From: a virus
Lineage: Duplodnaviria; Heunggongvirae; Uroviricota; Caudoviricetes
Length of the DNA stretch: 7,673 bases
Direction: 5' to 3' (one strand)
Virus record (IMG/VR): IMGVR_UViG_2534682234_000016
Span: 1-7,673 of that record
In this document: in pieces, positions 1-2,730 of the stretch
How positions within the stretch are numbered: position 1 is the stretch's first letter
How the letters are laid out: each line of letters starts with the position of its first letter
Notes under the pieces: model-generated
Told to the model about the DNA's origin: nothing
The model's input: the letters and a program-made list of their open reading frames with translations, nothing else
Databases searched by the model: none
Made by a program: the position numbers and the translations under genes

Positions 1-1143
1 CTATGCTGTTTTGATATCTACGATAATCCAGTCTTTACCACGATCATCATTGTATCGGTCGGTCATTTTTCTGGATTTATGACCTAACAACTTTTGCGTA
101 TCCAGACCCTGTTCCCGATATAACCGTTCTGACAGAGATCGCTGCTCATGAAATGTGGGCGCAGTTCCTTGCTCCCATTTTATGCCACATTTTTCCCTGG
201 CCTTTTTAAAAGCCGTTGTAAGAGTATTTGCAGACACCTGGTCTCCTCTGTTTGCTTGAGAGGTAGTGTGACGGTAATGGACCAGATATTTACTAACAAC
301 AGCATCCCTGCACTGAGATATAACTTCACGAAGGGTAATATTCAGAGCATCGCATTTCAGGTTAAGCGGAATAGCAAGTTTTGAACCGGTTTTTTCCTGA
401 GTAATGTGCAACATGTCGTCCCAGATATCAGAGAATTTCAAATTGCAGATATCGCTTAAACGTTGTCCAGTGACAAGAGCAAGTAGCATCCCGCATTTTA
501 AATAGGGCTGCCGTCTGCTTACGCTGTCAAATATTGCCTGCCATTCGGGCAGTGATAATCTTTGGCGGTTTACTCGATTTCGCGGTTGTTTTGTTGCCTG
601 CGCTGGGTTAAATCCTGGCGGAACATGTCCTGCGTGTTGTGCTTCTTTGAAGACGTCGATCAACACCATTCTCACGACTTGCGCCATCCTGTTATGACCT
701 TCAGCCTTTACAGCATCAATTATTTCGGCAATATCAAGTGCGGTAATATCCTTGAGGTGTTGCATTCCACAATGCTCACGGAAAAGACGGATGGGTTTGC
801 CTTTTTGCCGATAGGAGTTGGGTCTTAGTTCATTATGTTGCAGCCTGTCCTCCTGGATAGAATTATATTTATCAAGCCATTCTGTCACCGTAATGTCTGA
901 GCGCCTGCCTTTCATTCTTTCCAGACGCTCATTGACGCTTAATATTTGTCGGGTACGTTGTTCAGCAATAATGGTATTTGCTTCAGTAGCAACTTGTTTT
1001 GCTTCATTCTCATCAGTTCCTAAGCTATGAAAACGACCGGATAGTGGATGTTTGTATTGCCAATATACCTTTCCGGTTCGCTTATCTAATTTGCAATATA
1101 AATTGGGTATAGAGATTTTGTGAGATCGGGGTCTAGCAGCCAT
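1..1143 (-). CDS. int: Phage tyrosine integrase (lambda Int family), complete
   Basis: 380-aa ORF with ATG start (reverse complement of 1141-1143) and stop at 1-3. C-terminal catalytic motifs align with lambda Int (HEQRSLSERLY, LLGHKS, MTDRYNDDRG give the R, H-x-x-R, H and Y residues). Overall roughly 40-50 percent identity to lambda Int from memory, so a related but distinct integrase. Confidence 0.92.
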   Translation of the reverse strand: MAARPRSHKISIPNLYCKLDKRTGKVYWQYKHPLSGRFHSLGTDENEAKQVATEANTIIAEQRTRQILSVNERLERMKGRRSDITVTEWLDKYNSIQEDRLQHNELRPNSYRQKGKPIRLFREHCGMQHLKDITALDIAEIIDAVKAEGHNRMAQVVRMVLIDVFKEAQHAGHVPPGFNPAQATKQPRNRVNRQRLSLPEWQAIFDSVSRRQPYLKCGMLLALVTGQRLSDICNLKFSDIWDDMLHITQEKTGSKLAIPLNLKCDALNITLREVISQCRDAVVSKYLVHYRHTTSQANRGDQVSANTLTTAFKKAREKCGIKWEQGTAPTFHEQRSLSERLYREQGLDTQKLLGHKSRKMTDRYNDDRGKDWIIVDIKTA

Positions 1144-1369
1144 CAGCGATTATCCGTTGGAGTTTTGGGTTTGCGTTTATTGGGAGTTGCGGTTCTGCAA
1201 GCGTTCCTACAAAACGGGAATTTCGGTCAATCATCCAGTAGCGACCAACTTTTATAGCGGGTGGGGCCATCATTTTCCCTTGCGCGTATTTTTTCAGAAC
1301 TCGCTCACTTGGTGCTAAGTCCCCAAATTCTTCTTTAGCCCAGTCCCGTAAAGTGATTAGTCGAGACAT
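1133..1369 (-). CDS. xis: Excisionase (lambda Xis-like)
   Basis: 78-aa ORF immediately upstream of int, overlapping it by 11 bp. N-terminal motif ITLRDW...APPAIKVGRYW parallels lambda Xis LTLQEW...PPPVKDGREY. Strong Shine-Dalgarno (AGGAGG on the coding strand) about 7 nt upstream of the ATG. Confidence 0.85.
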   Translation of the reverse strand: MSRLITLRDWAKEEFGDLAPSERVLKKYAQGKMMAPPAIKVGRYWMIDRNSRFVGTLAEPQLPINANPKLQRIIADGC

Positions 1370-1731
1370 TTGTCCTCCTCTTAGCTGCTGAGGGAGTTTG
1401 TGACCGATATATCTGACATGATATTAAGCTCATGGCAGGTACATCTCTTGACTGGTCATAGAGATAAATTTAATGCTGAGAAATGCAGTATTGAATTTAT
1501 CAATTTTTCTATTTCCTGCGTATGGCACGTAACTTCTTAATGTGTTCTGCCGTTTCGATCTCTTCTGCTATCCGATCTGCATCAGCTTTATTCACAGGTT
1601 CAAAGTCATGATTAAAGCGGAACATGCTGGCGATACATGTTGCGCCTGCGCTTATATCGTTTTCCTGGTTCTGTTTTGACCGATTACCGGATACTGAAGA
1701 ATTACGCCAAAACACTGAAAGGAGCTGCCGC

Positions 1732-2421
1732 ATGAATACCCAATATTTACAGTATGTCCGCGAGCAACTCATTGTGGCTACCGCTGATTTGAGCGGAGCA
1801 ACGAAAGGACAGCTTGAAGCCTGGCTGGAGCATGCACAATTTGATACTGGTACATACAAACGAAAGAAGCCGCGCATTCTGGATGAGGTAACTGGCAGGA
1901 TGATTACGCTGGATAATCCGCCGATTTCCGGTAAGCAGTCGTACGCAAAAGGTTCATCCATTGCACTGGTCAGCCAGGTTGAGTTCTCAACCTCGTCATG
2001 GCGCCGCGCGGTTCTGTCTCTCGAAGAACATCAGAAAGCGTGGTTGCTGTGGAGTTACAGCGAAAGTGTTCGCTGGGAACATCAGGTCACCATAACGCAG
2101 TGGGCATGGAGCGAGTTTAAGACTCTGTTGGGTACCAGGAAAATTGCAGGTAAGACACTGGAACGTTTGAAGAAGTTGATCTGGCTGGCGGCACAGGATG
2201 TGAAGAACGAGCTGGCAGGGCGTAAGACCTATGAATACCAGGAGCTGGCATCACTGGTGGGAGTGACATCAAAAAACTGGTCTGAGACATTTACTGAACG
2301 CTGGGTTGCAATGAAACACATTTTTCTACAGCTTGATAGCCAAGCTTTATTGCTTTTAACGAAAACACGTTCAAAACAAAAGACCACATTTTCACAGCAA
2401 GATATTGCAAAACTGGATTAA
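1732..2421 (+). CDS. Putative late-gene antiterminator (Q-like, not lambda-Q type); 229 aa from ATG 1732
   Basis: The track ORF starts at 1624, but the ATG at 1732 has a good RBS (AAAGGAG at 1718-1724, 7-nt spacer), and the upstream extension reads like non-coding sequence. It lies directly upstream of a promoter/terminator-like spacer and the holin gene, which is the canonical Q position. It carries an HTH-like segment (YEYQELASLVGVTSKNWSETF). No resemblance to lambda Q as I remember it, so the family assignment is inference from synteny and size. Confidence 0.5.
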   Translation: MNTQYLQYVREQLIVATADLSGATKGQLEAWLEHAQFDTGTYKRKKPRILDEVTGRMITLDNPPISGKQSYAKGSSIALVSQVEFSTSSWRRAVLSLEEHQKAWLLWSYSESVRWEHQVTITQWAWSEFKTLLGTRKIAGKTLERLKKLIWLAAQDVKNELAGRKTYEYQELASLVGVTSKNWSETFTERWVAMKHIFLQLDSQALLLLTKTRSKQKTTFSQQDIAKLD

Positions 2422-2433
2422 AAATCATATATT
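2406..2433 (+). promoter_or_regulatory. Candidate sigma70 late promoter (pR'-like)
   Basis: TTGCAA (2406-2411), 16-nt spacer, TATATT (2428-2433), overlapping the end of the Q-like ORF. An alternative weaker candidate is TTGCCA 2453-2458 with AGTAAT 2476-2481. Neither is verified. Confidence 0.25.
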
Positions 2434-2488
2434 TTATGTAAATCTGATATTTTGCCAATGTTGTACGCACTGGCAGTAATCCAAATTC

Positions 2489-2525
2489 AAGCCCGAGGTT
2501 TAAAGCCTTGGGCTTTTCTGTTTCT
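2489..2525 (+). terminator. Promoter-proximal hairpin with interrupted U-tract (possible pause/terminator or Q-utilisation structure)
   Basis: 10-bp stem aagcccgagg (2489-2498) pairing with ccttgggctt (2506-2515), including one G-U pair; 7-nt loop; followed by ttctgtttct. Confidence 0.35.
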
Positions 2526-2602
2526 GAACGGTGAGTAGCCTTCCAACCTACCCCAGCCAGGGGGTCTTCAGCTGTTGAGTTGATATTGCTTAGCCCTCTG
2601 TT

Positions 2603-2628
2603 GCCAGCTACATGCTGGCTTTTTTATT
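2603..2628 (+). terminator. Intrinsic terminator, tR'-like, upstream of the lysis genes
   Basis: Perfect 6-bp GC-rich stem gccagc (2603-2608) / gctggc (2614-2619), loop tacat, then ttttttatt (2620-2628). Its position between the Q-like gene and the holin matches lambda tR', which ends the short 6S transcript. Confidence 0.55.
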
Positions 2629-2730
2629 CCAGGCTTGTGGGGAGCATCAACTCCGTGCTTTGTCGTTAAATTACCCCGTGAGCCTGATTTCTGACATTTA
2701 ACGTCCCGGCCTTTTGTCGGCGGCGAAACA

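Follow-up and report, generated by a model that had tools for sequence, protein, structure and literature searches.

Loss of the early region from prophage Sp8 in Escherichia coli O157:H7 F3113 and the predicted silence of its late genes

Introduction

How does the integration module of a lambda-like prophage come to lie beside the late-gene control region, and what governs late genes that have no linked immunity region? Both questions are raised by positions 1 to 7,673 of the IMG/VR record IMGVR_UViG_2534682234_000016, a caudoviricete sequence (hereafter the window, meaning this whole stretch of 7,673 nucleotides), in which int and xis are followed almost directly by a gene resembling the late antiterminator gene Q. 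We traced the window to prophage Sp8 of Escherichia coli O157:H7 F3113 and compared it with Sp8 in other strains. Our analyses suggest, with a probability of roughly 0.9 for the explanation as a whole, that F3113 carries a deletion derivative of Sp8, a locked-in cryptic prophage in which Q has been orphaned and the late genes are silent.

Results

Origin of the window

The window and its junction were compared with a set of 5,426 complete E. coli genomes. F3113 (NZ_CP038374.1, 2271699-2279371) matched the whole window at 100% identity, and the window lies there directly downstream of icd, which ends 114 bp before the window start. Only eight genomes covered at least 80% of the window at one place. 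Several hundred further genomes were at least 99% identical, and among the O157 matches listed the match starts at 1641, which points to a breakpoint near this position. In strain Sakai the homologous element at the same insertion site is annotated as 'prophage Sp8; lambda-like phage', and the window is the left end of this lambda-like prophage, inserted at the 3' end of icd in F3113. The complete counterpart used below is the prophage of strain 493/89 (NZ_CP038412.1), whose locus coordinates carry the label L002; the labels L001 and L007 denote pieces of the F3113 record. The features around the junction are as follows (lengths of products in amino acids, aa; ORF, open reading frame).

1-1143, minus strand: tyrosine integrase of the lambda type, 380 aa, intact (ORF; Pfam Arm-DNA-bind_1 and Phage_integrase; RefSeq 'site-specific integrase', WP_000741343.1)
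1133-1369, minus strand: excisionase gene xis, 78 aa, intact (Pfam Exc, PF07825; RefSeq WP_000088655.1)
1463-1501, plus strand: AT-rich, terminator-like hairpin with a perfect 16-bp stem and a T-run (terminator scan; fold -17.7 kcal/mol, z = -4.2)
1509-1641, minus strand: 3' stub of a DUF4222 gene, N-terminus missing (RefSeq pseudogene 1509-1649; equivalent to L002 8486-8618)
1641: deletion junction, one T common to both parents, 11,383 bp missing relative to 493/89
1642-1735, plus strand: 3' stub of ylcG, a homologue of phage 82 orf45, N-terminus missing (RefSeq pseudogene 'YlcG family', 1643-1735; alignment to 493/89 and phage 82)
1732-2421, plus strand: predicted Q antiterminator of the phage 82 type, 229 aa, intact (Pfam Phage_antiter_Q, PF06323; AGGAG 8 nt upstream of the ATG)

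An 11,383-bp deletion between xis and Q

BLAST against the 493/89 locus resolved the window into exactly two segments, namely 1-1641, which corresponds to L002 6978-8618 with 2 mismatches, and 1641-7673, which corresponds to L002 20001-26033 with 1 mismatch. Both flanks in F3113 therefore match the 493/89 prophage with 3 mismatches in 7.7 kb, and 493/89 has the full early region. The DNA missing in F3113 is contiguous in 493/89, and the flanks are collinear and in the same orientation. Read side by side, the left parent extends up to ...GATACATGTT and the right parent starts from (T)GCGCCTGCGC..., with one T in common. Two parental matches that share a single T indicate an 11,383-bp deletion by illegitimate recombination with 1-bp microhomology. 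The junction at 1641 falls within the interval 1380-1730 in which a first-pass annotation, made from the letters and ORFs of the window, had expected a breakpoint.

The gene order in 493/89 is int, xis, DUF4222, a TraR-like gene, three small ORFs, exo, bet, gam, kil, an S24 repressor gene and cro, followed by a ydaT-like gene, O, P, ren, emrE, ybcK, ybcN, ninE, ybcO, rusA, ylcG and Q. The missing segment holds the TraR-like gene, everything from there through rusA, and the 5' part of ylcG. Among the genes lost with it are emrE (multidrug efflux; L002 16086-16418), ybcK (recombinase; 16663-18189) and rusA (19596-19958). What remains between xis and Q is a gap of 362 bp (1370-1731), all of which matches two distant parts of the complete prophage; the ORFs on either side, which the first-pass annotation had placed about 360 bp apart, were confirmed. 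No repressor, N, O or P gene is annotated by RefSeq in the identical F3113 sequence, in agreement with the earlier reading of the window, and the finished assembly from PacBio and Illumina data holds no early genes between xis and Q.

A 200-bp probe spanning the junction was fully covered in one of the 5,426 genomes, that of F3113, and both junction flanks are single-copy in F3113 by megablast and by the more sensitive blastn. The events can be pictured as follows. One deletion by illegitimate recombination would have joined the DUF4222 stub beyond xis to the ylcG stub upstream of Q, taking out the genes of the pL operon, the repressor gene, cro, O and P together with the origin, and the nin region, to which emrE and rusA belong. 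Left between intact attL and attR would be int-xis, an intact Q, the leader with pR' and its terminators, and the genes for lysis, heads and tails as well as cos.

The first-pass annotation had advised a search of the contig for attL, head and tail genes and attR, and all are present. The attachment sites are a 217-bp duplication of the 3' end of icd, 97% identical and including the icd terminator hairpin (L001 19724-19940; L007 17310-17526), and the displaced icd copy at attR is annotated as an isocitrate dehydrogenase pseudogene; integration into icd resembles that of e14-type elements. According to the annotation, Sp8 of F3113 has a full set of head and tail genes. Along 24,375 bp its late region is collinear with that of Sakai Sp8; the alignment is free of gaps and contains 52 mismatches. 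A single defect is annotated, in the side tail fibre gene (L007 1367-4282; record 2297366-2300281), where a stop comes prematurely at codon 657 of 971.

Identity of Q and control of the late genes

The 229-aa ORF scored 316.3 bits against PF06323 (cut-off 25; E 1e-94), covering profile positions 1-217 of 220. Its product is identical to the phage 82 Q antiterminator (CAA63332.1) at 225 of 229 positions, with 98.4% nucleotide identity to X92588.1, and the nin-Q segment of the complete prophage in 493/89 is 95.3% identical to the same phage 82 record over 2.3 kb. By homology, the ORF appears to be a genuine Q antiterminator of the phage 82 type, not a member of an early-region gene family. As read earlier from the window, it leads into pR'-like signals, with candidate terminator hairpins, and into a lysis cassette of holin, R and Rz/Rz1. 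A search of PDB sequences with Q returned no match at E values up to 0.01. The reading frame of Q is open back to an ATG at 1624, on the left side of the junction, so that 36 aa could be added at the N-terminus. This start has no Shine-Dalgarno sequence, whereas that at 1732 has AGGAG; the longer form is probably a mechanical extension of the ORF, and the ATG at 1624 is probably not a start in use.

The phage 82 record X92588.1 ends at the stop codon of Q and holds no late leader, and a scan of the whole window with Rfam found no family at the gathering threshold, hence no curated model of a late-leader RNA. In the window, the candidate late leader consists of three elements, all located before the holin gene.

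2405-2433, plus strand: pR'-like late promoter, TTGCAA-17-TATATT, overlapping the end of Q (consensus scan)
2489-2515, plus strand: first intrinsic-terminator-like hairpin of the late leader, 12-bp stem (fold -18.4 kcal/mol, z = -3.5)
2603-2619, plus strand: second terminator-like hairpin (tR'-like), a GC stem followed by TTTTTTATT (scan; fold -11.9 kcal/mol, z = -3.6)

F3113 has a single copy of this leader, and three other, diverged Q-like sequences are found elsewhere in the genome. The pR'-like site at 2405 was the sole promoter-like site on the plus strand in 1-3100. Upstream of Q, in 1-1731, the same consensus scan, a crude one in which 5.2 sites would be expected here by chance, found none on that strand. 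Candidates for a new promoter at the junction were weak (TATATC, with 3 of 6 matches at -35), fell below the criteria of the scan and were rejected as evidence.

In lambdoid phages such as lambda and phage 82, Q is transcribed only by read-through from pR across the nin region. The phage 82 record also lists a putative internal promoter in the nin region, which maps to about 18.5 kb in L002, inside the deleted segment. The deletion would therefore take away pR, the nin region and the putative internal promoter together, leaving Q without a recognisable promoter. Further upstream, a terminator-like hairpin follows icd (L001 19911-19933). Another lies at 1463-1501, just past xis and antisense to the operon that runs leftward. 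It is followed by AATTTTTCT, the Sakai-type breakpoint described below (window 1509) comes immediately after it, and in F3113 it now stands between xis and Q; it could be an antisense terminator or one for convergent transcription. With Q placed behind terminator-like hairpins, little or no Q would be made, and Q is probably not expressed in F3113. Because Q is cut off from its promoters, transcripts from pR' should stop at tR', which would keep the lysis and structural genes off. Such silence is consistent with the viability of F3113 despite an intact holin-endolysin cassette.

The same losses bear on mobility. Given that the repressor, pL and pR, N, O and P, and the origin are all gone, the element would be neither inducible nor able to replicate, and excision is unlikely since int and xis lack pL and the function of cII. 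We infer that Sp8 of F3113 is a locked-in cryptic prophage. The question of how late genes are controlled without an immunity region, which had been posed from the window, is thus largely answered by textbook lambdoid regulation, with the silencing step itself a prediction.

Early-region losses in other strains

F3113 is one of several strains in which Sp8 is truncated. In Sakai, 644-PT8 and NE 1092-2 (the last also O157:H7), a different deletion of about 5.7 kb (L002 8487-14232) extends from just past xis into O. This Sakai-type deletion fits the published description of Sp8 in Sakai, which has no CI and no Cro and for which neither excision nor packaging was detected (PMC2669165). F3113 retains 132 bp (window 1510-1641) that are absent from strains of the Sakai type. 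Its deletion therefore cannot stem from that of Sakai, and the Sp8 of its ancestor must have been more complete. A third deletion (L002 9333-20210), reaching 119 nt into Q, was found in the non-O157 strains 2013C-4974 and CFSAN004176; in 2014C-3011 and its relatives it is accompanied by a further loss of 733 bp. These non-O157 strains have additional deletions in head or tail genes. Judging from the breakpoints, the early region of Sp8 appears to have been lost at least three times independently, as in the familiar decay of prophages.

Late genes have been damaged as well. The side tail fibre gene interrupted in F3113 is annotated as intact in Sakai (ECs_1650), and the portal gene of 493/89 has an internal stop. 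Decay has hit different modules in different lineages.

Alternative explanations

The first-pass annotation had left two possibilities standing, a deletion derivative and a naturally minimal element that keeps integration, late control, lysis and packaging. The former is borne out by the flanks of the 11,383-bp segment in 493/89 and by the gene stubs; the latter finds little room when the junction occurs in a single genome out of 5,426. In its fuller form, the second possibility is a helper-dependent element, like a satellite or a gene transfer agent, that is kept by selection. The intact late region, collinear with Sakai Sp8 over 24 kb without indels, the completeness of Q, the lysis genes, cos and terminase, and the existence of three lineages that independently lost the early region yet keep int-xis all speak for such an element. 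Nevertheless, besides being rare, the junction is bordered by remnants of two genes that the parent carries in full, the other deletion variants differ in their breakpoints, those in non-O157 strains cut into Q and head genes, the side tail fibre gene of F3113 has a premature stop, and Sp8 of Sakai is neither excised nor packaged (PMC2669165). Varying breakpoints and damage fit decay and do not fit a conserved design. A comparison with satellites of the phage-inducible chromosomal island or P4 type gave the same answer: no architecture recurs with the same boundaries, and in place of regulation and replication genes of its own combined with structural genes of a helper, the element has head and tail genes and lacks a repressor, a primase and a replication gene. 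We consider a selected minimal element very unlikely.

A related proposal accepts the deletion and denies that its product is inert. The block of phage 82-type Q, pR', lysis genes, cos, terminase, and head and tail genes might have been retained by selection and be activated in trans, in which case the repeated loss of immunity would amount to domestication and not to decay. Activation might come from read-through transcription or from a related Q encoded by one of the three other Q-like genes of F3113. If this were true, the element could supply particles, or adjacent chromosomal DNA could be packaged from cos. We regard this proposal as improbable to a high degree.

If the junction were an assembly misjoin, the true F3113 genome would have the early region in place, with xis on one side and Q on the other. 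Assemblers can be misled by lambdoid prophages that are almost identical, and O157:H7 genomes contain many of these. Misjoins, however, normally arise inside repeats and not at a 1-bp overlap of unique sequences, and here both sides of the junction are single-copy, collinear and in the same orientation, and they occupy the locus at which other strains have them. Moreover, the assembly was built with HGAP from PacBio long reads, polished twice and corrected with Illumina reads (PMC10758439). There is accordingly only a slight chance of a misjoin. Weakest of all is a hybrid formed by homologous recombination between two resident prophages, which we find extremely unlikely: recombination between prophages is frequent in O157 (PMC2669165) and F3113 has three other diverged Q-like sequences, but the homology at the junction is only 1 bp, the flanks are at least 99.9% identical to Sp8 of 493/89, the right flank recurs at 100% identity in many other O157 strains, and the gene order through attR is that of Sp8.

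Some points weigh against a deletion derivative with silent late genes. An error of assembly at the junction is a formal possibility. A more complete Sp8 in the ancestor of F3113 has to be squared with the strain phylogeny, by early divergence or by re-acquisition through recombination. That Q and the late operon are silent is deduced from missing consensus promoters, and with as many chance sites expected as stated above, the lack of a site upstream of Q in the scan proves little. A deletion derivative with an orphaned Q is nonetheless the explanation that we prefer.

Other features of the window and its surroundings

The remainder of the window encodes lysis functions, an accessory region (4001-5847) and the start of the packaging genes.

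2743-3048, plus strand: holin of the LydA type (Pfam Phage_holin_3_3; RefSeq)
3035-3511, plus strand: endolysin, lambda-R-like (RefSeq name)
3508-3969, plus strand: Rz (Pfam Phage_lysis; RefSeq)
3728-3910, plus strand: Rz1, embedded in Rz (ORF list; Sakai ECs_1624)
4001-4294, minus strand: bor (Pfam Lambda_Bor; accessory region)
4586-4996, minus strand: ybcV (RefSeq; accessory region, where the Pfam matches are Lambda_Bor and DUF1398)
5282-5488, plus strand: ybcW (RefSeq; accessory region)
5653-5847, minus strand: ylcI (RefSeq; accessory region)
6047-6058, plus strand: cosN, 12-nt cohesive end (exact match to lambda, GGGCGGCGACCT; 0.01 expected by chance)
6236-6781, plus strand: nu1 (Pfam Phage_Nu1)
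6756-7673, plus strand: 5' part of the terminase gene A, running off the window (Pfam GpA_ATPase; full-length A has 1926 nt in the RefSeq record)

Identity to lambda is 96.9% from position 3052 onward, and the alignments to lambda records stop at 6046. The lysis genes are a mosaic of a LydA-type holin and lambda-like R and Rz. GC content falls to 32-38% over 4600-5400 (ybcV and ybcW, between bor and cos), compared with 48-55% in the flanking phage genes, a drop that acquired moron regions typically show. At 4586-5119 the program-made ORF has 177 aa and so exceeds the 136 aa annotated for ybcV.

Outside the window, a cargo block lies between the tail fibre assembly gene and attR (L007 4983-16841; record about 2300982-2312840). 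It comprises genes for a manganese catalase, ferritin-like proteins, a methyltransferase broken by IS1203 and ISEc8, an alpha/beta hydrolase, ompT and an acetyltransferase. Another small element that resembles a prophage is located just upstream of phoQ, about 8 kb from Sp8 (L001 1-11486; record 2251699-2263184). It encodes a primase, a single-stranded DNA-binding protein, a PerC/PchE regulator, an HK97-type capsid protein, a protease, a portal protein and a P27-type terminase, and it corresponds to the Sakai element annotated as 'Sp7; untypable'.

Discussion

Sp8 as a defective prophage has already been described, and the deletion in F3113 is strain-specific and of a known kind. Sp8 of Sakai (ECs_1609, the int homologue, to ECs_1650 and beyond) has the same int, xis, Q, lysis, cos, terminase, head and tail genes at 99.8-99.9% identity, and the xis product WP_000088655.1 is identical in the O157 strains 644-PT8 and NE 1092-2. 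Sakai Sp8 keeps part of O and, beyond it, P, ren, emrE, ybcK and the nin region, all of which are absent from F3113; like F3113, it lacks cI and cro (PMC2669165).

Two further comparisons place the element among lambdoid phages. The Q proteins of F3113 Sp8 and phage 82 are near-identical, but phage 82 is a viable phage that expresses Q from pR. DLP12, Rac and Qin of K-12 are likewise lambdoid prophages decayed by deletion, with int/xis, Q-lysis and nohD-type terminase remnants, and the RefSeq names ybcV, ybcW, ylcI, nohD, rzpD, emrE, ybcK, rusA and ylcG are shared with these cryptic prophages. The K-12 prophages have lost most of their head and tail genes, whereas Sp8 of F3113 has kept all of them and only the early region is gone.

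The finding matters mainly for strain-level genomics, as it adds one more route of decay for the O157 prophage Sp8. Across lineages, the late genes of this prophage remained largely intact through at least three separate losses of its immunity and early region. F3113 loses the prophage-borne emrE, rusA and ybcK, and its Sp8 would be non-inducible and non-replicative, which bears on prophage typing and on predictions of mobility.

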